Shown here: positions 15,923 through 30,428 of the stretch, piece by piece
Position numbering within the stretch: position 1 is the first letter of the stretch
Layout: the number at the start of each line of letters is the position of its first letter
Assembly: GCA_963665115.1 (NCBI GenBank)
Contig: OY762007.1
Location: 4,640,001 to 4,704,000 of the forward strand
Length of the DNA stretch: 64,000 nucleotides
Source of the DNA: an uncultured Rivularia sp.
Lineage (GTDB): Bacteria > Cyanobacteriota > Cyanobacteriia > Cyanobacteriales > Nostocaceae
Direction: 5' to 3'
Notes under the pieces: generated by a model
Database searches by the model: none
What the model saw: the letters and a program-made list of their open reading frames with translations, nothing else
Told to the model about the DNA's origin: nothing
Program-made: the position numbers and the translations under genes

Positions 15923-18328
15923 TCAAACCCCCAAAAACTGCTTCAAAATAGGCAATACCAAAACAGCATTCGCTTCATCAATATGATTGGCATCATTTGA
16001 CACATTTCCATCCACACCATTCTTCACTCTCTCACCCATTTGTCGCCGCTCTGGCTCAGAAAAAGTTGCAAATGTACGCCGTAATAAAGGTAACGAAGCA
16101 ACAAAAAAATCTTCACTTAAGGTACTTACCCAGTTATCTAAAACTTGCCAAAGCTTATCGTCATGTAAAAGTAATAAACCGCTACCTTTTAAAAATCCTT
16201 CCACCCATGCACCTGCTTGAGATGGCTCCGTAGCTGTAGATAAAGCCAACCCCATCCGACGTGCTGCTTCTGCTGCATCCAACACCTCAGCATCCAATAA
16301 TAAACGACAGCAACGCCCGGAAATTAAACCATGTACGTTGGAATTATCTGCAATTTGCGATAAAACTAGTCGCCAAGAGGTAATATATTCTTCGTTTTGT
16401 AATAAAGCAATGGCATTATTTACCTTGACTACATTCTCATACATCGCCGATGCTGCATCGTCATCCAAAGAAGCGCAGGCACCCGGCAAACTAATACAGA
16501 TTCGCGCTACCAAACCATCAACAACATGAGATATCATCTGTGTATCTGTTTGACGCACGTTACCGTAACGCATCACATTAGCGAGCGGTGGTAATGCATT
16601 CATTAAATGACTGACATCGCTAGTTAAAGCCGCAGCATTTTGCAATCGCGACATCAAATAAATTACTGCATCAGGTAAGTCAGACAAAATAACTTTATCC
16701 AGCAAACCTGTCAGCATTGGTAACTCATCAGTTGTATCCGCAGCACTACAAGCTTTCACATTAGCAGCATCACCAATAGTATTACCCCAAACTCCGGCTT
16801 CAATTAAATTGACGGCAAATTCGGGATGCCATTGCACCAGCCAAAATTCGTGAAAAGTACCCTTCTTACCGCGAGTTTGTTGAAATTGTCCCCAAGGAAT
16901 ATCTAAAAGATTAAGACGATGCAGCAAGTGAGAGCGAGCTAAATCGTTTTCTTTTCGCAAATCCAAATCGTACATCTTTTCTGTAACATCCGCAGGCATC
17001 CGCAAGCGCTTTTGCTGTCGCTGTAAATCTTGCTGCAACGGCACCATCGGCGTTTCGTCGGGAACTTTGCCCAAACTTTCACCAACAATCAATTTATCGA
17101 AAATTAGCTGCATCGGTAAATCGCTACCAAAACACATCACCGTTTGAGTAGCTTCATTTAACTCCGGTAAACCTGGCAAAGAACGATTTCGCAAAGCCGC
17201 CAAAGATTCCGCCAACCGCACTGCTTCAATAACGTGTGCTGAAGAAGCATCTAAATCTTGCTCTCGAAGTAAACGTGCTACTCGTGTCATCCAGGTGATA
17301 GAGATGGGGGGAGGGGGAGAGGGGGTGGAGGAGCCACTTGCGTGCGGGGGTTCCCCCCGTTGAGCAAAGTGGCATGGGGTGGAGGGGGTAGAAATTTCTT
17401 GTTTGTCTTCTCCCCTTGTCTCCCCAATCCCCAATGCCCAATTCCCCATGCCCGAATTCCAAAGATGATGATACCAACCTGGTGATTCTATACCCGCGCC
17501 ATAACCGCTGCTGTATGACAAACGTCCGTAAGTCCAAGGTATCCAGGTTGCCTGTACTTTTATTTTAGGTAAACCTTTGAGTAATGCAGTATCTTCTTTT
17601 GCTGGTGGCATCTGGGAAAGTGCGGGAGCGTGCCAAGCTCCACAGACAACGGCGATGCGTTGAAATCCTTCTTTTTGTGCTGCGCGGATGGTTTTCCGCA
17701 TATGTGCTTCGCGTTTGGCTTCGATGGGATTTTCCGGTGCTGGCATTTCTTCACGCACGGCAGTCATTGCTTCGAGGATAGCGGTAAATAAATCAACACT
17801 ATCTCCCCGTGTTTCTACCATATGTTCCCACCAACGTTCGCCGTCGCTGTAACCTGCTGCTTCGGCAAGTAAGCCTAGAGGATCTTGTGGGGTAGAGGGG
17901 GTAGAGGGGGTAGAGGGGGTGGAATTTTCTAGTTGTACTGTCTCCTTGTCTCCTTGTCCCCCCATCTCTTCATCTCGTTCTTCGGCGTTAAGCGAAGCTC
18001 TACCGAAGGTAATCGCCATCCGATGAGTCAGGGGTAAATCCATGAACCGCACGGGGATATTATTACTTAGTCCATATTGTATTGCTTGCCACTCTGGTGA
18101 GAAGATGGCGAAGGGATAATAAACGCTTTCTTTGGGGTTGTCTGGGAGGTAAATTAGTAGTGCTACGGGGGGCTGCATTTGCGATGAAGCGACTAGTGGT
18201 AGCAAGGATTCGGCATCGGGTGGCCCTTCGATTAAGATGGTGTCGGGTTGTAGTTTTTCTAATGCTCGGCGTAGGCTGCGTGCTGAACCGGGGCCGTGAT
18301 GTCGGATACCAAAGATGTGGGTTGTCAT
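15923..18328 (-). CDS. DUF5682 / YehM-like protein
   Basis: FGIRHHGPGSA, IEGPPDA, FSPEWQA, REAHM, VCGAWH, GYGAG; carries in-frame repeat insertions. Confidence 0.85.
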   Translation of the reverse strand: MTTHIFGIRHHGPGSARSLRRALEKLQPDTILIEGPPDAESLLPLVASSQMQPPVALLIYLPDNPKESVYYPFAIFSPEWQAIQYGLSNNIPVRFMDLPLTHRMAITFGRASLNAEERDEEMGGQGDKETVQLENSTPSTPSTPSTPQDPLGLLAEAAGYSDGERWWEHMVETRGDSVDLFTAILEAMTAVREEMPAPENPIEAKREAHMRKTIRAAQKEGFQRIAVVCGAWHAPALSQMPPAKEDTALLKGLPKIKVQATWIPWTYGRLSYSSGYGAGIESPGWYHHLWNSGMGNWALGIGETRGEDKQEISTPSTPCHFAQRGEPPHASGSSTPSPPPPISITWMTRVARLLREQDLDASSAHVIEAVRLAESLAALRNRSLPGLPELNEATQTVMCFGSDLPMQLIFDKLIVGESLGKVPDETPMVPLQQDLQRQQKRLRMPADVTEKMYDLDLRKENDLARSHLLHRLNLLDIPWGQFQQTRGKKGTFHEFWLVQWHPEFAVNLIEAGVWGNTIGDAANVKACSAADTTDELPMLTGLLDKVILSDLPDAVIYLMSRLQNAAALTSDVSHLMNALPPLANVMRYGNVRQTDTQMISHVVDGLVARICISLPGACASLDDDAASAMYENVVKVNNAIALLQNEEYITSWRLVLSQIADNSNVHGLISGRCCRLLLDAEVLDAAEAARRMGLALSTATEPSQAGAWVEGFLKGSGLLLLHDDKLWQVLDNWVSTLSEDFFVASLPLLRRTFATFSEPERRQMGERVKNGVDGNVSNDANHIDEANAVLVLPILKQFLGV
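17988..18011. mobile_element. 24-bp small dispersed repeat (SDR5-like) inserted into a HIP1 site, in frame
   Basis: GCG|TTAAGCGAAGCTCTACCGAAGGTA|ATCGC; removal restores GCGATCGC. Confidence 0.85.
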
Positions 18329-18507
18329 GATTATTTAAACCGCAGAGACGCGCTCGGGCGCAGAGGAAGAAAAAGAGAGTAAGAAGTTAATTAAACTATA
18401 TTTTTATAACTTATTAGCTTTTCAAAGAGTAATGAGCGTTCGTAAAGTGATATTACAGGATTTTGATTTTTTAACCCTGAAATATCATAAATGTACAAAA
18501 ATTTGAT

Positions 18508-19923
18508 TCAAATTTCCTCAGTTACAACTCTACGAATAATTTCAGTTATATCGGCAGCCATACGTGCATCAAGCTCTGCCCATTTACCGTTAGTGGGATT
18601 TGTAACTCCTCGAAGTGTCATGGCTAATGTTCTTAATTTTCCTAATTGAGTATTAGATTTGAAACGCTCGTCAATAAACTGCACGAAAGCGGTGTAAGTA
18701 ATTTCAAATGTATTTCTACTATTACTATATCCATAACCTAACTTGGAAATAATTACTGGTGCGCCGATAGTTTTTTCTAATCCTAAAGTTTCTAAAGCTA
18801 CTTCTGCATAGCGTGCTTTATCGTAAGCCATTGCATAAATTATATCTTTAAGACTGTGCCATTGCGCTGCCGGTAAACGTGCTGATTGATTAAGATGTAA
18901 ATGCCATCCTAACATTGACATCAACCGGGTTAAATCGTAAGCGGAAAGATAATTTTTATCTATTTCCAAACCTGTAGCAGCAGCATTTAATATTTGCTTT
19001 CCGGTAATCCTATCAAATAAAGATGGTTGAGAAATAAAAGGTGTTTCACCGTATCCGCTACGAAATTCTAAATTTTGATTTCCAGTGATGCTTTTAAGCC
19101 AGTTTTCTAAACCAAAAGGTGTTTGAAATCTTTTTAACATCGCAGCCGCTGAATTTGAACTTGCTATTTTATTTCTATAACTAATGATATCTAGGACTAT
19201 ATCTAAAAAGTTATATTTTTTATCGTTAATATAGCAGCTTTCAATATCAAGGTTAGCCAATTTTGAATTTGCTTCACAAGCTGTATTCAGAATCGGAATA
19301 ATCTTTGTCGCACTCCAAAATTGATTTTTAGTTAAATAATTTTTTCCCAACCACCGGGTTTTAATTTCTCCACTATCAAATTTACCGAGACAGACACAAG
19401 CTTCTGTAATTACTGAATCTAGAAAGTTTAAACTTGTATTTTCAATAGTTGGTATTGTTCCTCGTTGGGGATAATTATTGTATGTTGAATTAATAGATTG
19501 ATTTTCGTATTTTGCAGCTAAACGGTTAGAATATTCGTTGATTTGAGCAATATAAGTCGAATTTTTAATATCTCGGTGTAAGAATGCTGCAACATCATCA
19601 CCGGAAAGTCTGGTTTTTTTTGCTATAGCAAGTAATTTATGAAAAATTGATTCTTGATTTGCTGTTTGTAAGATAAATGGTAATTGCTTTGTAATTAACA
19701 GCTTCCAAGCAAAGTTTTCATCAAAGCGAAGTATTGGTAAATCTACAGCCTGACAAAACTGTTTAATTGCACCTTCAGTCATTGGGCCATAATCACCATC
19801 TACTAATTTTCCACCAGGATATAAACCCAAGCTTTTAAGATTAATTTGGATTTCGGTAACTAATTGTTCGTCTGCTTTTACTTGTTCTTTGCTTAATAAA
19901 CCACTAATATTTTCAAGCTTCAT
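18508..19923 (-). CDS. Peptidoglycan-binding protein with putative serine beta-lactamase/PBP-like domain
   Basis: VDGDYGPMTEGAIKQF (PG_binding_1); SATK, SSN and KLG in SxxK/SxN/KTG order. Confidence 0.65.
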   Translation of the reverse strand: MKLENISGLLSKEQVKADEQLVTEIQINLKSLGLYPGGKLVDGDYGPMTEGAIKQFCQAVDLPILRFDENFAWKLLITKQLPFILQTANQESIFHKLLAIAKKTRLSGDDVAAFLHRDIKNSTYIAQINEYSNRLAAKYENQSINSTYNNYPQRGTIPTIENTSLNFLDSVITEACVCLGKFDSGEIKTRWLGKNYLTKNQFWSATKIIPILNTACEANSKLANLDIESCYINDKKYNFLDIVLDIISYRNKIASSNSAAAMLKRFQTPFGLENWLKSITGNQNLEFRSGYGETPFISQPSLFDRITGKQILNAAATGLEIDKNYLSAYDLTRLMSMLGWHLHLNQSARLPAAQWHSLKDIIYAMAYDKARYAEVALETLGLEKTIGAPVIISKLGYGYSNSRNTFEITYTAFVQFIDERFKSNTQLGKLRTLAMTLRGVTNPTNGKWAELDARMAADITEIIRRVVTEEI

Positions 19924-22016: not shown

Positions 22017-23612
22017 CTAAGCTATTTTCAGCACTTTACGTAAAACTAATTGGTCTTCTATTTTAACTTTTAGACGACCGTTTTCTATGTCCCGAATCCA
22101 GCTTTGGCTTTTTCCCATCAGTCTTGCTAATTCCCTTTGAGAAATGCTCAGGTTTTTTCTCGCTAAACGTATTTGTTCGCCAAGTAAACCACCTGCTGTT
22201 TTAATATTTCTTCTCTTTTTAGAGTTGCCAACCCTCTGCTGTTTTTTCCTTGCTGTAAGATTTGGCTGATCCCATTTTGGTGACATTTCAAAAGCTAAAA
22301 TTCTGGCATTCATTAGCATTTTCCACTTACCACGGGGACTCACATCGGTTAACCTTCTTCCTTCATCACCATCATTAGTCCAAAATTCCAAGGCTTCATC
22401 TGGATCTTCGGGAATATCTGCTAACTTTGCCCACAGCGGCTGAATCGGTTCTGGATAACTAACTGGATCGAAAATGGGTTTCATCCCATGATGCGATAAA
22501 GTTTCTAAATCGCTTTCATAAGTTCGCAGCAGTCGTTTTCTTTCTTCCCTTTGTCTGCAAGCAATTGCGACTTTGCGATCGCCATATGCAACACGCATTA
22601 ATGTAGGTACTGTAATGCGCTGTTGTTTGCCCATTTTTGCTTTGAACATTAACCACATCATAAGTCTTGCCGCACCTTCATGCTGCTGCCAAATACTCAT
22701 CACTGTAGTCAGCAAAGATTTAGGCAAATTACCATACTGATAAAAGGCTGTTCGCTCTTTGCAAGCATCTTTATTTAAAAAATACTTTGCCCAATCACCA
22801 GCTTTGACTCTAAATGTTAAACCTACCAAATATTTACATCCTAGATCGTCATGTTGGAAATGATGCTGAATTCCTGTTAAATCCCAAAGCTTACTTTTTT
22901 CTAAGAAAATTGGTTTGATACGCCCCTGTTGCGGCAAATCAATCGAAAGCATTAAGGAGCAAGCTTGGAGAACTAAATTTTTCATCAAAGCCAATTTTGT
23001 GGTTTTGTTCAAGTCTTTGCGTTTTTCTAACCCTAAATACTTCTCTATTTGCTTATCGTCTACAACAAACTCTTCCTCCCAAGATTTTTCCGAAAAAGTC
23101 GCATAAGCTGCAAAAATTAAATGCACGCAAGCAGATCGAATATCCAGAGCTTCTACTGCTTCTAAATCTGTGGCAAGTTCGCTTGCTTCAGAATAAGAAT
23201 TAAGATGAAAAGCAATTTTCCCCTTTCCTTGATTGATCTTTTTGCTGTAACGTACTTGGTTGTTTTCATCTATTTCCCAAGGCAAAGATGCTCTTTGAGA
23301 TAACACATTACAAGCTTCCCAAATCGGAATACCCGATGCAAATGGATTACTTTTACCATTAAAAAATAAATCGGAACTAGTTAATTCTCTATCGTCAATT
23401 TTGCACCTCCCTTTTTTTACTTGTAATGGTATTGGAGACTTACTCGGACAGGCAGATACGCACTGGGGTTCTGAATAATAACCCTCGCAATTGTTACATA
23501 AATGAGGGTCAATCCAATATTCACCATTATCGATTTTGATAGCACCTGTTGGACACTGAAAACGACATTTGTCGCATCCAGCACAACTATTGTTAGATAT
23601 TGTATAAGGCAT
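22017..23612 (-). CDS. patB: PatB/CnfR transcriptional activator of nif genes (N-terminal 2x[4Fe-4S], C-terminal HTH)
   Basis: CAGCDKC...CP and CNNC...C...CP ferredoxin motifs; XRE HTH ISQRELARLMGKSQSWIRDIENG; divergent from coxBAC as recalled for Nostoc PCC 7120. Confidence 0.9.
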   Translation of the reverse strand: MPYTISNNSCAGCDKCRFQCPTGAIKIDNGEYWIDPHLCNNCEGYYSEPQCVSACPSKSPIPLQVKKGRCKIDDRELTSSDLFFNGKSNPFASGIPIWEACNVLSQRASLPWEIDENNQVRYSKKINQGKGKIAFHLNSYSEASELATDLEAVEALDIRSACVHLIFAAYATFSEKSWEEEFVVDDKQIEKYLGLEKRKDLNKTTKLALMKNLVLQACSLMLSIDLPQQGRIKPIFLEKSKLWDLTGIQHHFQHDDLGCKYLVGLTFRVKAGDWAKYFLNKDACKERTAFYQYGNLPKSLLTTVMSIWQQHEGAARLMMWLMFKAKMGKQQRITVPTLMRVAYGDRKVAIACRQREERKRLLRTYESDLETLSHHGMKPIFDPVSYPEPIQPLWAKLADIPEDPDEALEFWTNDGDEGRRLTDVSPRGKWKMLMNARILAFEMSPKWDQPNLTARKKQQRVGNSKKRRNIKTAGGLLGEQIRLARKNLSISQRELARLMGKSQSWIRDIENGRLKVKIEDQLVLRKVLKIA

Positions 23613-24883
23613 AAGGCTTATTGCCACTTCACTTCTTGCGACTTTGGCTCAAGTCCTACCTAGATGTGTCTTCATCGTAAATTTTATTTACCACACTTTA
23701 CGACAAGAAAAAGGTTTACTTCTCGTAATTACTGACTCACATCTATAAATTTACTCTACGATTAATTACAGGAAGTTAATTAGTAGTATTAACCCGATCC
23801 TGTATTTCACACTTCGTTATTTATAGTTTTCATAAAGTTGTTAAAAAGTTTTGTTCGTAATGAGCTAAGGACTATTTTTTATGCTATTTCTACAGGTTTA
23901 GTGATAAATCATCACTTAATGACCTGCAAAAATATTTTAATTGTTCTCAAAGAACAACTCAATTGCTAATATCTTTTTGCAGAAAATTTATTTGATTTTA
24001 CTTGCGTCTATTTCTTATCTTAACATATTCTTCACGTAACCTTTATATTTATTTAGTTTTTGTTTACAATAGATTTTTAAGTATTTAATCCTATAGTGAT
24101 TTTAAAGTTTGGATACTAAGTTAAAAATCTGCTAAGTATTGCTAGATTTATTTTTTGATTGATTGCATAAAATAGGTTATTCATGAACAAATCACTAAAA
24201 TCAAAATAGTCATAAATTAACAAATGTAAATTTGAAAATACTATAGTATGATGAATAATATTTTTTACACAAAACTATTAATCAAAGATAAATTATATTT
24301 TGTAAACTTTATTTTTAATTCATAATCAAGTTAGCTGAATTAAGCTATCTTGGAATCAATGCTGGAATAAGGTTTAGTCAAGTAGACAGATATAGGTAAA
24401 TCTAAAATAAACGTGTCCTCCACTTATTAGATAACTTCGTGTAGCTGAATTATGTAATAAGCATTATTAACCGTCTAAATTAGACAGTATTTATATCTTG
24501 CGAACTTATCCCTCATAGAGAAAAATTATGTTCAATTGCTGCGTTTTATGAATCTTAAAATTAGTAGCTGCTTCTCTTTCAAGATTTACTCATCAAGACA
24601 TTATCCTAAAATCTGAAAGTCGTGTAATAAGTACATAAGTTTTAAAGTTATAAAAAAGAATTAAAAGCGTAGCGAAACAAACTTAAAACTTATGCATTTT
24701 CTTGCCAAATAGATGTAGCAAAGAAATTTTTACGGAATTACATAAGTATATGAAGGAAATCGCACCGCGTACCCTCATACCGTATAGATTCAATCGGCGG
24801 ATGAATGTAATAAACTAAAAGCGAAATCTGAAAATAAGCACATTCATCACCAAATTACACGAAACTTTATATCATAAGTCGCC
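23613..24883. promoter_or_regulatory. Long AT-rich divergent promoter region between patB and coxB
   Basis: About 1.27 kb with no ORF between divergent genes; individual sites not resolved. Confidence 0.6.
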
Positions 24884-25865
24884 ATGCAACAAATTCCTGC
24901 TTCATTACTAACCTTGGTTGCTGGAGCTTTAGTCACAATCATAGGTTTATGGGTTAGTCAAACTCATAATTTATTACCAGTACAAGCATCCGAACAAGCA
25001 CCATTGGTAGACGGATTCTTCAACGTCATGTTCGCGATCGCCATTGCTTTATTCTTAATCGTAGAAGGAACAATCCTATTTTTCGCGATTCATTTTCGTC
25101 AGCGTAAAGGCGACGAGACAGATGGGCCCACCAATTGAAGGAAACGTTCCTTTAGAAATATTTTGGACTGCAATTCCGACTCTAATAGTTTTTGCTTTAG
25201 GTATCTACAGCGTAGATGTCTACAAGCAAATGGGAGGATTTCCGTCATCTACTCCAGTAATAGAGGCTCAAAATCATCACGGTAGTGGAAGTGCCATTGC
25301 AGCCACGATCGGCGAAGCTCCGATAATTTCATCAGAAGCAGCACCTTTAGCCAGTCAAAAGGTTGGTATTAAAGGCTCACCCGAACAGCAAGGTAAAGCA
25401 GCAGATGTAACTGTAGACGTTACCGGAATGCAGTTCGCTTGGATTTTCAGTTATCCACAAGATAATGTCACATCCGGTGAATTACACGTACCAGTAGGTG
25501 CTGACATACAGTTGAACATTGCAGCAACAGACGTAATCCACTCATTTTGGGTACCGCAATTTCGTTTAAAGCAAGATGCGATTCCTGGAATGAATACCGA
25601 ATTGCGATTTGTCGCCACCAAACCGGGAACTTATCCCGTGGTTTGTACAGAATTATGTGGTGCTTATCACGGTGCAATGAGAAGTAAAGTAATCGTTCAC
25701 ACTCCCGAAGAATATCAAGGCTGGTTGCAAGAAAACCGCGTTGCACAGCAAGAATCGCAAACAGTTGCAATTAACCCCGCACAATTATCATCATCCGAAT
25801 ATCTAGCTGCATACAATTCGGAAATTGATATTAACTCAGCAACTCTTGCTCAAATTAATAAATAG
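24884..25865 (+). CDS. coxB: Cytochrome c oxidase subunit II (CuA-containing, cox2-type); one apparent +1 frameshift at 25124-25129
   Basis: The two ORFs join as DETDGPPIEGNVPLEIFWT; CuA ligands DVIHSFW...CTELCGAYHGAM. Confidence 0.92.
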
Positions 25866-26053: not shown

Positions 26054-26985
26054 ATGACTCAATTAGAACATCCACAAAGTACAACTGAAGTGGCTGCTCA
26101 TGCTCATCCCGAAGCATGGAAGTGGTATCAATATTTCACATTTAATGTAGACCACAAGGTAATTGGAATCCAATACCTAGTGACATCGTTTATTTTTTAT
26201 CTGATCGGTGGATTGATGGCTGTAGCCATGCGTGCCGAATTGGCGACACCGGATGCAGATTTACTCGATCCTAATCTGTATAATGCTTTTCTGACCAACC
26301 ACGGAACAATCATGATTTTTCTGTGGATTGTTCCCAGCGCAATTGGTGGCTTCGGTAACTATTTAATACCGCTGATGGTTGGCGCTAGGGATATGGCTTT
26401 CCCGAAGCTGAATGCTGTAGCCTTTTGGTTAAACCCGCCAGCCGGAGCTTTAGTTATAGGTAGTTTCTACTTCGGTGGTTCTCAATCTGGCTGGACAGCC
26501 TATCCACCCTTAAGTTTGGTAACGGCGAATACCGCTCAAAGTATGTGGATTCTCGCCATTGTTTTGGTCGGAAGTTCCTCTATTTTGGGTTCATTGAACT
26601 TTGTTGTTACCATCTGGAAGATGAAAGTTCCTTCTATGAAGTGGGATGAATTACCCTTATTTTGTTGGGCAATTTTGGCTACTTCATTATTGGCACTTGT
26701 TTCTACACCAGTACTAGCTGCTGGTTTGGTATTGCTGCTATTTGATATTAACTTCGGTACTTCCTTCTTTAAACCAGATGAAGGCGGTAACGTGGTTATT
26801 TACCAGCATCTATTCTGGTTTTATTCTCATCCAGCAGTTTATTTAATGATTCTGCCTATCTTCGGGATTCTTTCTGAAGTAATTCCGGTTCATGCACGTA
26901 AACCAATTTTTGGATATAAGGCGATCGCCTATTCCAGTTTGGCGATTTGCGTTGTAGGTTTATTTGTGTGGGTTCATCATATGTT
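26054..26985 (+). CDS. coxA: Cytochrome c oxidase subunit I, 5' part (interrupted)
   Basis: DHKVIG, HGTIMIF, GWTAYPPL, FWFYSHPAVY, ends at VWVHHMF. Confidence 0.95.
26971..26985 (+). repeat. Left recombination core GGTTCATCATATGTT
   Basis: Identical to 28749-28763. Confidence 0.95.
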
Positions 26986-27019
26986 TCTTATTGATTAATA
27001 TTCCCTAAAAGCTGTAAAT

Positions 27020-27066
27020 TGTATCTAACAAACACTGTAGCCAATAAACATTGTTTGTTATGAACA
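27020..27066. promoter_or_regulatory. Three adjacent TGT-N9-ACA sites (putative NtcA sites)
   Basis: 27020-27034, 27036-27050, 27052-27066; exact 16-bp period. Confidence 0.55.
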
Positions 27067-27097
27067 GTTTTTAAGGAATATATAGGGAATAAACACA

Positions 27098-28492
27098 ATG
27101 GAAGCAGACATCTACCAAGAAGCATTTAAAGACTTTGAATCATCAGCTACAACAGACGGCAGCTACTTGGGTATAAATAAAGCACGATTAGAGTTAGAAG
27201 CACATATGGAAATGAAGATAGAAGAAAAATTAAAAGAAGCTAATTTACGACTTAAAGAAATTAATGCGAAAGTTTCCTTGACTCGGAAAGGTAATGCAGT
27301 ACAGCTACGAGCTACGTTACCGCTTAAACCAGGTGACATTAGTACAAAAGGTAGACATACAAAGCAGTATCAAATATCGTTGAATATTCCAGCTAACTTA
27401 GATGGATTAAAAACAGCAGAAGAAGAAGCCTATGAATTAAGTAAGTTAATATCCAGAAAGTGTTTCGAGTGGAATGACAAATATTTAGGGCATAAAACCT
27501 CTGATAATGTTGATATAACCTTTGGTGAAATATACGAAAAATTTGAAGATATTTTTTTTCAATCAAGAAAAAGAGATATCAAAAGCGAACATACTTTAAC
27601 TGAATACAAAAAAGTTTTTAAAAGAGAATTTTTACCAAATTTAATTGTAAATAAAAGCAATATCGAAATTTCTCTAAAAAAAGTTGATTCAAGCAGCAAA
27701 AGATTTCAAGCGCTAAAAGTTGCCAGCATCATTTGCAAATACCTAGAAATAGACTGTGACTTTAAAACACTCAAGCTTCCTATCAAAGTACAAAAAAGAG
27801 ATATCCCTCAAGATAATTTGATTATTCAAGGTTTTTATGCATTCGATAAATACAGTGAATTAAACAAACATAAAAAAAATCCTTATTGGAATACTTACTT
27901 AATATATAGATTGGCTTATGGTTTAATAGCGACTTATGGATTGCGCCCTAGAGAAGTATTTAATCAACCCGATATTGATTGGTTTATGAGTGAAGATAAT
28001 ATCGATAATACTTGGAAAGTTCACAATGATAATAAAACAGGAGCGAGGGAAGTATTACCCTTTATGCCGGAGTGGATTGAACTATTTGATTTAAAAAATA
28101 AAAAGTCGTTTAATTTACTTAAACAAAGAACTGAAAAAATTAAATGTTCTTCACAATTAACTATTATAGTAGATAAAAATTCTCAATGGTTTAAAAGAGT
28201 TGGATTAGAATTTAAACCTTATGATTTACGTCATGCTTGTGCTATTAGAGCGCATTTACAAGGCATACCAATTAAAGCAGCAGCAGACAACTTAGGGCAT
28301 TCCATAGAAATGCATACGAAAGTTTATCAAAAATGGTTCTCATTAGAAAATCGTAAGAGAGCAATTAATACAGCTTTAAGTGAAAAAGAAGAATTAGAAA
28401 TAATTAAAGAGAAAAATATTTATCTACAAAATAGGGTGGATTTTTTAACCGCAGAATTAGAAAAGTATAAATTACAAGCAGTTAGTACATAG
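27098..28492 (+). CDS. XisA/XisC-like tyrosine site-specific recombinase (excisase)
   Basis: LRATLPLKPG...QY-x-ISL N-terminal arm; GLRPRE, KTGAR, YDLRHACAIR, LGHS...HTKVYQKW catalytic motifs. Confidence 0.92.
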   Translation: MEADIYQEAFKDFESSATTDGSYLGINKARLELEAHMEMKIEEKLKEANLRLKEINAKVSLTRKGNAVQLRATLPLKPGDISTKGRHTKQYQISLNIPANLDGLKTAEEEAYELSKLISRKCFEWNDKYLGHKTSDNVDITFGEIYEKFEDIFFQSRKRDIKSEHTLTEYKKVFKREFLPNLIVNKSNIEISLKKVDSSSKRFQALKVASIICKYLEIDCDFKTLKLPIKVQKRDIPQDNLIIQGFYAFDKYSELNKHKKNPYWNTYLIYRLAYGLIATYGLRPREVFNQPDIDWFMSEDNIDNTWKVHNDNKTGAREVLPFMPEWIELFDLKNKKSFNLLKQRTEKIKCSSQLTIIVDKNSQWFKRVGLEFKPYDLRHACAIRAHLQGIPIKAAADNLGHSIEMHTKVYQKWFSLENRKRAINTALSEKEELEIIKEKNIYLQNRVDFLTAELEKYKLQAVST

Positions 28493-28748
28493 TTCAAAGC
28501 AAATTTTACTCAGAAGAGGCATAATTTAGCAAACTTGGAAGTAAATTATAATTGTTTCCAAGTTATTTATTGTCTATATAGATACTCAAATTATGAATAT
28601 ATTTTTTTAAGGAATAAATAGCGAATATAAACATGAGAAATAACTTGATTTATGTAATTGTGGGCAGTAATTGAATATGTATTTAAGGAATATTTAGAGA
28701 ATAATAATTAAAATAAACATTTAGCTTTTGCTATCTAAAGATTTTAAT

Positions 28749-28763
28749 GGTTCATCATATGTT
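28749..28763 (+). repeat. Right recombination core GGTTCATCATATGTT
   Basis: Identical to 26971-26985. Confidence 0.95.
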
Positions 28764-29500
28764 CACCAGCGGTACACCGGGCTGGATGCGGATGTTTTTT
28801 ACCATCTCCACCCTGATAGTTGCAGTTCCTACCGGAATCAAAATCTTTAGTTGGGTGGCGACTCTTTGGCAAGGAAAAATTCGCTATACTAGCGCGATGC
28901 TGTTCGCTATCGGCTTATTGATGATGTTCGTTTTAGGTGGAATCGGTGGCGTTACCTTGGGTACAGCACCATTCGACGGACACGTTCACGATACATATTA
29001 TGTAGTTGCTCACTTCCACTACGTCTTATTTGGCGGTTCCGTATTTGGTATTTACGCTGCGATATACCATTGGTTCCCTAAAATGACCGGAAGAATGATG
29101 AATGAAAGATTAGGTCAAATTCACTTTGTCCTTACCTTCATCGGCACCAACTTAACCTTTTTACCCATGCACGAACTGGGTTTACAAGGAATGCCTCGTC
29201 GAGTTGCCATGTACGATCCACAATTTGAAGCTATCAATCAGCTTTGTACTTATGGTGCTTATCTGTTAGCAGTATCCGTAATTCCTTTCACCATCAATGT
29301 TATTTGGAGTTGGATGGCTGGAGCAAAAGCTGGCGATAATCCTTGGAATGCTTTGACATTAGAATGGACAACCGCTTCACCACCAGCCATTGAAAACTGG
29401 GAAGAATTACCCGTCGTAACTCACGGCCCCTTACGATTACGGCGTGGTAACTGAGGGTGAACCTTTAGAACCCACAGCAGAAGCAGAAGCCACTGCTTAA
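28764..29500 (+). CDS. coxA: Cytochrome c oxidase subunit I, 3' part; apparent +1 frameshift at C-run 29427-29430
   Basis: TSG...AVPTGIK, HDTYYVVAHFHYVL, GMPRR; removing one C gives HGPYDYG... with stop at 29498-29500. Confidence 0.93.
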
Positions 29501-29540: not shown

Positions 29541-29651
29541 GTAGTGCGAGCATCTTGCTCGCTGATGTTTAAAACGAGCATCTTGCTCGCTGATGTTTAA
29601 AACAAGCATCTTGCTCGCTGATGTTTAAAACGAGCATCTTGCTCGCACTAC
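29541..29651. repeat. Tandem REP array, four hairpins, 28-bp period, GTAGT...ACTAC termini
   Basis: CGAGCATCTTGCTCGC separated by TGATGTTTAAAA. Confidence 0.9.
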
Positions 29652-29837: not shown

Positions 29838-30428
29838 ATGGCGATCGCCACAGAAAACTCACCAGCGCAACATGAAGAACACGCCGATTTACGAGTTATA
29901 GGATTAATAACTTTCCTAATCTCGGAATCCTTAATGTTTGGTGGATTCTTTGCTACCTATTTGTTCTATCGAGGAACCACTGCAACTTGGCCCCCCGAAG
30001 GAACAGAAGTAGAGTTATTGTTGCCAACCATCAACACCATCATTCTAGTGTCAAGCAGTTTCGTCATTCACTTCGGCGATTCAGCGATTAAAAAGAATGA
30101 TGTCAAAGGAATGCGAAAATGGTACAAAATTACCGCATTCATGGGAATTATTTTCTTGCTAGGTCAAGTTTACGAGTATCTGACATTAGGATACGGAATG
30201 ACTAGCAACTTATTCTCCAACTGTTTTTACCTGATGACAGGATTCCACGGCTTACACGTATTCATCGGAGTCTTGTTAATTTTAGGTGTATTGTGGCGTT
30301 CCCGTCGCACCGGACATTACAGCGAACACAAACATACCGGAATCGAGATGGCAGAAATCTACTGGCACTTTGTAGATATCATCTGGATTGTACTCTTCAC
30401 GCTGCTTTATATTCTTACTAAATTTTGA
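29838..30428 (+). CDS. coxC: Cytochrome c oxidase subunit III
   Basis: FLISESLMF, NTIILVSSS, TGFHGLHV, YWHFVD. Confidence 0.95.
   Translation: MAIATENSPAQHEEHADLRVIGLITFLISESLMFGGFFATYLFYRGTTATWPPEGTEVELLLPTINTIILVSSSFVIHFGDSAIKKNDVKGMRKWYKITAFMGIIFLLGQVYEYLTLGYGMTSNLFSNCFYLMTGFHGLHVFIGVLLILGVLWRSRRTGHYSEHKHTGIEMAEIYWHFVDIIWIVLFTLLYILTKF

Follow-up and report, generated by a model that had tools for sequence, protein, structure and literature searches.

A gene for subunit I of a cytochrome oxidase is broken at the codons of its paired histidines in an uncultured Rivularia sp., which raises the question of how the complete protein could be made. The window that we analysed is a stretch of 64,000 nucleotides (positions 4,640,001 to 4,704,000 of the forward strand of contig OY762007.1, assembly GCA_963665115.1). 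Our answer, drawn from sequence comparison, is that in all probability an XisA/XisC-type recombinase cuts the intervening 1778-bp element out as a circle in differentiating heterocysts and thereby restores a 555-codon coxA2.

The split coxA and its operon

The locus consists of a patB/cnfR-like gene on the minus strand, coxB, the split coxA and coxC, in this order:

22017..23627, minus strand: patB/cnfR-type regulator, a context marker for cox2; Pfam Fer4 and HTH (4Fe-4S at the N-terminus, HTH at the C-terminus); oriented divergently from the cox genes, named from architecture and position
24884..25865, plus strand: coxB2 with the CuA motif; contains a surplus C near 25127, an assembly error
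26054..26985, plus strand: 5' part of coxA2, codons 1-311, with His259 and His308-His309
26971..26985, plus strand: left junction (attL); its core GTTCATCATATGTT at 26972-26985 is conserved, with an exact match in all 16 left ends
28749..28763, plus strand: right junction (attR); host bases ACC AGC after the core; both the exact core and ACC AGC are found in all 16 right ends
28749..29500, plus strand: 3' part of coxA2 with His394/His396; an extra C near 29427 is an assembly error
29838..30428, plus strand: coxC2 (Pfam COX3)

The 5' open reading frame of coxA (26054-26998) ends as WVHHMFLID followed by a stop, and the 3' part restarts as VHHMFTSG. His259 and His308-His309 belong to the established CuB histidines. 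The direct repeat GGTTCATCATATGTT is found at 26971 and 28749 with a spacing of 1778 bp and occurs nowhere else in the 8.69-Mb genome. Within coxA2 the site of the element is position 919-932. The two coxA halves match neighbouring parts of Pfam COX1 (2-264 and 259-435) and the insert matches Phage_integrase. A previous sequence-only reading of this DNA had described a 1778-bp element within coxA, bounded by a 15-bp direct repeat and carrying a single intact tyrosine recombinase gene, and the open reading frames and the repeat search bear this out. The exact 15-mer that it placed at both junctions is present in this genome but does not hold across relatives, where the core is 14 bp; the first G of the right-hand copy is particular to this genome (1 of 16 right ends). 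When the halves are rejoined, the frame is cut short at 540 amino acids by the extra C near 29427. The empty-site orthologue in the related genome G007, 97% identical in DNA, is full-length at 555 amino acids and scores 696.9 against the CtaD/CoxA cut-off of 670.75, in agreement with the contiguous frame of about 555 codons that had been proposed once the extra C is allowed for.

A second extra C, in coxB (about 25127), had been overlooked. Both extra Cs are absent in the contigs of runs X2, X3 and X4, while X1 retains the one at 29427 and is mixed at 25127; the four runs come from one study, which is possibly the source of the assembly. Compared with G007, about 100 kb of coding DNA in the assembly contains 29 isolated indels of one base. 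GGCC methylation was considered as the source of the extra Cs, and 5 of the 29 indels were flagged as GGCC-adjacent. Since they are missing from the X2-X4 contigs and stand against this background of isolated indels, both extra Cs are assembly errors. Gene decay as their explanation is ruled out by the same contigs, by the indel background and by equal dN/dS in genomes with and without the element. Between coxA and coxC (29549-29646) we also observed three and a half 28-bp units inside inverted ends, with one unit fewer in run X4.

The split operon has a CuA-bearing coxB, adjoins patB/cnfR and is followed downstream by a nitrogenase-associated gene. The genome holds two more coxA genes, one with a CuA-bearing coxB and the motif WAHHMF (cox1-like) and one without CuA (cox3-like), and both are unsplit at the His-His site. 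In Leptolyngbya boryana, coxB2A2C2 is described as adjoining cnfR (PMC5943405, available text). In Anabaena 7120, cox2 and cox3 are described as heterocyst-specific, and the double mutant as lacking diazotrophic growth (PMC5943405, PMC6616624, available text). The earlier assignment of a CuA-bearing cox operon divergent from patB to heterocyst-type cox2 is supported by its context and by the two paralogues that cover cox1 and cox3; it is made from gene context and not from a named reference sequence. The further proposal, that this oxidase is assembled only by programmed DNA rearrangement in heterocysts, is a likely reading. With unsplit coxA3-type and coxA1-type genes in the same genome, heterocyst respiration need not rely on this one event.

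The recombinase and the cis parts of the element

Between the two junctions the following features are found:

27020..27066, plus strand: three tandem TGT-N9-ACA boxes with a 16-bp period (27020, 27036, 27052), NtcA-type sites predicted by sequence match
27072..27090, plus strand: left paired direct repeat TAAGGAAT-N3-TAGGGAAT, a predicted arm-type site for the recombinase; all 13 complete elements have it, about +86 to +99 from the core
27098..28492, plus strand: xis, 464-aa tyrosine recombinase with R283, K313, Y375-x-x-R378, H401 and Y410; three-domain model similar to lambda integrase
28532..28564, plus strand: 9-bp inverted repeat past the xis stop, terminator-like, read from the sequence without folding; a similar hairpin is present in relatives
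28608-28626 and 28684-28702, plus strand: two right-arm paired repeats, predicted arm-type sites; all 13 complete elements have them, at -141 to -144 and -66 to -67

The xis frame is 464-469 amino acids long in all 13 complete elements, which span 1778-1994 bp; element GC is 0.27-0.29. It begins 112 bp from the element end, and a start 96-120 bp from the end is common in Table B of Hilton et al. 2016 (PMC4874684). The catalytic residues listed above are invariant in 43 relatives of xis. In a recombinase tree (rows with stops skipped; L103, with a stop codon, left out of the alignment), xis nests among the recombinases of nifD, nifK, nifH, nifN and hupL elements and forms its own clade. It is about 45-46% identical to the XisA-type and XisC-type copies of this genome; these references are the genome's own copies adjoining the published nifD and hupL cores, and the PCC 7120 proteins themselves were not aligned. 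The Phage_integrase match, the catalytic residues and the position in the tree confirm that the cargo is an intact tyrosine recombinase of XisA/XisC type, as had been proposed.

The structure model of xis (pLDDT 85) contains an N-terminal three-strand-plus-helix domain and a C-terminal coiled helix. Its best structural match is lambda integrase (1z1b, E 3.8e-6, 15% identity, TM 0.36-0.48), while a sequence search of the PDB gave one weak XerC-like match and no recombinase model was found in NCBIfam. The likeness to phage lambda integrase extends to the predicted N-terminal domain and to paired direct repeats on both arms. In contrast to the phage system, Tyr replaces the box II His, the element has no excisionase gene, and the C-terminal coiled helix is present.

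The 16 left ends score 13-18 of 18 letters for the triple box, and none of 600 random windows exceeds 14; the box of G004 is weak (13 of 18) and inside the background range. For most of the other xis genes in this genome the score is 10-14. A perfect identical triple box flanks the canonical nifD (xisA) element of this genome, next to GGAGTAATCC. The available part of PMC2661322 describes TGT-N9-ACA as a site for NtcA in the promoter of xisA, and the title of a further reference mentions three adjacent sites upstream of xisA. The three paired direct repeats are probably arm-type binding sites of the recombinase; the repeat pattern was derived from the same elements, and its background of 0.07 per 1.8 kb is a guide only. 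The left pair may double as a ribosome-binding site. At the empty site, a search for inverted core-type arms gave no clear case.

These parts suggest a mechanism. The N-terminal domain of the recombinase would bind the paired arm repeats, and recombination would take place inside the 14-bp core. NtcA, at the triple box between the core and the left arm site, may gate expression or direction. Vegetative cells would retain the element, which would thus be inherited at little cost. Over evolutionary time it would be lost from some lineages, and it likely re-enters or is swapped between strains.

Carriers, empty sites and use of the gene

A left-junction pattern matches 16 of 389 family genomes: the present one, 14 of 26 congeners, and G167; two genus genomes show the right end only. 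With G167 excluded from the genus count, the element is carried by 17 of 27 genus genomes, nine have a precisely empty site, and in one (68% complete) no cox2 is seen. The nearest relatives of the present genome, G007 and G003, are empty. We considered G167 as a transfer into another genus and rejected it, as it is likely a misbinned contig; its cox flanks nest inside the genus, and congener G168 is 77% alike. Four metagenome contigs supply further copies of the element. Orthologous recombinases (81-91% identical) occur in records titled Rivularia, Plectonema cf. radiosum and Richelia, and the named carrier strains are Rivularia sp. UHCC 0363 and Plectonema cf. radiosum LEGE 06105. Outside the genus, no break at the coxA2 His-His site was found among the matches listed (150 of 297, family draw).

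The dN/dS values of the coxA2 5' and 3' halves are 0.026 and 0.038 in carriers and 0.029 and 0.039 in empty genomes; the median for xis is 0.15 over 105 pairs. Purifying selection on both gene halves is undiminished in carriers. At the junction, the core and ACC AGC are fixed in carriers, whereas CAC codons are found in 5 of 9 empty genomes and ACT AGT in 6 of 9. The synonymous junction sites 936, 939, 924 and 927 rank 1, 2, 3 and 6 of 1172 variable cox sites for association with carriers, in a ranking that is uncorrected for relatedness, treats kin that are not independent and leaves out G167. A sliding window gave no signal of a long shared allele among the empty genomes. Equal dN/dS together with junction codons frozen in carriers indicates that the gene is used whole and that the junction sequence matters only where the element sits. 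Selection on both halves, the frozen codons and the NtcA-type boxes thus favour the functional rejoining proposed before. The opposite case, a coxA2 copy in decay, is contradicted by the three runs that lack the frameshifts and by the unchanged dN/dS of carriers. The element is real and very likely functional. As a separate observation, codons 312-313 read ACC AGC in three and ACT AGT in six of the nine empty genomes, and a single-change form in none.

Excision by the recombinase need not be confined to heterocysts: it could occur at a low constitutive rate or upon another trigger, and frequent germ-line excision would then give rise to empty genomes. In the flank tree the nine empty members of the genus are indeed scattered over as many as eight positions, not all of them on well-supported branches, and three empty genomes (G003, G009, G365) retain the carrier-type core with ACC AGC, as after a recent clean excision. 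We consider this improbable, as each of the four runs yields a single contig with the element, which has persisted in 17 genomes from all main clades, and the NtcA-type boxes are conserved. The excised junction is absent from the contigs of runs X1-X4; contigs drop rare forms and are therefore uninformative on excision.

It is less probable still that no excision occurs and CoxA2 is made as two polypeptides, the second from an in-frame ATG at 28747 or from the core's own ATG. Selection on both halves would be compatible with this, and the in-frame ATG before the right core gives a 235-aa frame here. However, just 1 of the 16 right ends has the ATG at 28747, xis is separated from the 3' half by a hairpin, and the frozen synonymous junction codons, the arm repeats and the conserved recombinase would be left unexplained. 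An inert insertion that knocked out coxA2, with cox3 covering the function and the locus decaying, could draw on the frameshifts of the assembly in coxB and coxA and on the unsplit coxA3-type gene, but it is largely refuted and barely conceivable given the absence of these frameshifts in three runs, the equal dN/dS in carriers and empty genomes and an intact xis in 13 of 13 elements.

Probable lateral movement, related elements and significance

Besides its probable excision in heterocysts, the element likely moves laterally between strains, as suggested by the conflict between xis and flank trees (AU p≤0.008). AU tests reject three flank clades on xis (p 9e-5, 0.002, 0.002) and two xis clades on the flanks (p 0.001, 0.008). 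Between G005 and G016, xis dS is 0.04 against a coxA dS of 0.43; in a clade of five genomes the values are 0.05-0.10 and 0.19-0.32. In the present genome, xis clusters with the G010 copy; in the flanks, right up to the core, 136 of 153 informative sites agree with G007, which fits a transfer of the element without long flanks. Strain chimeras, a risk in the metagenome assemblies that make up many of the relatives, could produce a similar conflict, and there may be recombination in the cox flanks themselves. The xis and coxA distances correlate (Spearman 0.72), so that inheritance is also partly vertical.

By pattern search, 7 of 389 family genomes, from three genera, were found to have a coxA3-type gene interrupted at the corresponding His-His codons (loci L107, L112, L121, L124, L129, L182; L199-L202, L204-L206). 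The interrupting element has an 8-bp repeat (CACCATAT), a length of 1825-2282 bp and a recombinase on the opposite strand, which is about 47% identical to that of the coxA2 element and intact in 6 of 7 cases. Four of 11 matches to the coxA3 pattern were set aside as chance. The split is also seen in records titled Nostoc linckia (including NIES-25), Nostoc calcicola and Nostoc sp. NIES-4103; named records and genome handles may overlap and are not to be summed. A single origin of the two elements is rejected, as one recombinase clade fails the AU test (p 0.002). The coxA1 gene is contiguous at the His-His site in all those genus genomes, 21 of 25, for which both halves were listed. The earlier view that the element targets invariant codons gains support from this separately derived element at the same codons. 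More tentatively, both may be still-mobile minimal integrative elements: circles released in heterocysts would re-enter empty His-His sites of other strains by site-specific integration, element-less hosts would escape by silent recoding of His, Thr and Ser, and two XisA-family lineages would have converged on the CuB His-His codons of both heterocyst-only oxidases, with the vegetative coxA1 spared. We regard this extended scenario as possible, with the odds against it.

Other elements were noticed in the course of the analysis. The cox2 operon of the genus has three further element sites, namely coxA at about nt 262-266 (serine type), coxA at about nt 1165-1185 at HDTYYVV (tyrosine) and coxB at MQFAWIFS (tyrosine, 1690 bp, G017); their loci are L033, L034, L015/L016, L023/L024, L030/L031, L018/L019, L032 and L130. 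The coxA of G015 has three breaks. In G004, the first 266 bases of coxA2 (C3:181603-181868) lie about 165 kb from the rest (16410-19611) on the opposite strand; either restoration would need an inversion or the contig is misassembled. In the present genome, nifN is split by a 1886-bp tyrosine element with the repeat CCACGGT (C1:4203842-4205728), and the rejoined gene encodes 436 amino acids. The available part of PMC11249958 gives no nifN insertion in 29 strains, and Table 1 of Hilton 2016 (PMC4874684) lists none. In the region C1:4129000-4229000, eight more tyrosine recombinases and at least two serine-type frames interrupt nifB, nifH, nifD, nifK, nifN and hupL. XisA-family recombinases at L094, L095 and L174 lie between a pstS-like phosphate-binding gene and pstC/pstA-like genes (named from translations), and their surroundings showed no interrupted nif or cox gene.

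The element resembles the nifD element with XisA and the hupL element with XisC of Anabaena (Nostoc) sp. PCC 7120 in having a tyrosine recombinase near one end, a short direct repeat and a heterocyst-type gene as its target. Those elements are 11.3 and 9.4 kb, whereas the present one is 1.8 kb without cargo beyond its recombinase and targets coxA2. In size, minimal content and low GC it is similar to the tyrosine elements of 1.67 and 1.75 kb (GC 0.32-0.34) in nifD of Calothrix PCC 7103 (Hilton 2016, PMC4874684, Table B), which differ in target gene and core. The accessible text of the same paper describes three cox elements, in coxA2 and coxA3 of Calothrix PCC 6303, 7102 and 7103, which likewise split heterocyst-type oxidase subunit I genes; all are of serine type, 12-984 kb in length and at positions 255, 274 and 732, unlike the 1.8-kb tyrosine element at position 919-932. 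Calothrix NIES-4101 has a three-part coxA with two serine recombinases, and its rejoined coxA is represented by 4 reads against 160 unrejoined for a serine element (PMC11249958, available text). From the repeats given there, we infer that both sites lie upstream of His-His, the second repeat reading as the DGGNPVLY region. Compared for the same site within 10 bp and a serine recombinase, our element does not match the published coxA variants. A tyrosine element in a cox gene, or any element at this site, was not found in the literature searched; subscription journals and bioRxiv supplements may hold one. The suspected novelty is accordingly partial: coxA2/coxA3 elements and tyrosine elements of 1.67-1.75 kb have been published, and it is the site that was not found.

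Heterocyst interruption elements gain a new member whose kind and size are already known. What appears to be new is the site, the recombinase class at a cox gene, the convergent element in coxA3 and the indications of lateral movement. XisA-type rearrangement is thereby extended from nif and hup genes to oxygen-removing oxidases. Its size of 1.8 kb lays bare the cis parts (core, triple box and three arm pairs), which makes the element a compact model for the control of direction and cell type. Whether such elements are retained, or lost and reintroduced, was left open in the accessible part of Hilton 2016 (PMC4874684). With carriers and precisely empty genomes among close kin, conflicting trees and named carrier strains, integration is testable, and the reading of re-entry and escape, if true, would answer whether heterocyst elements are lost and reintroduced.
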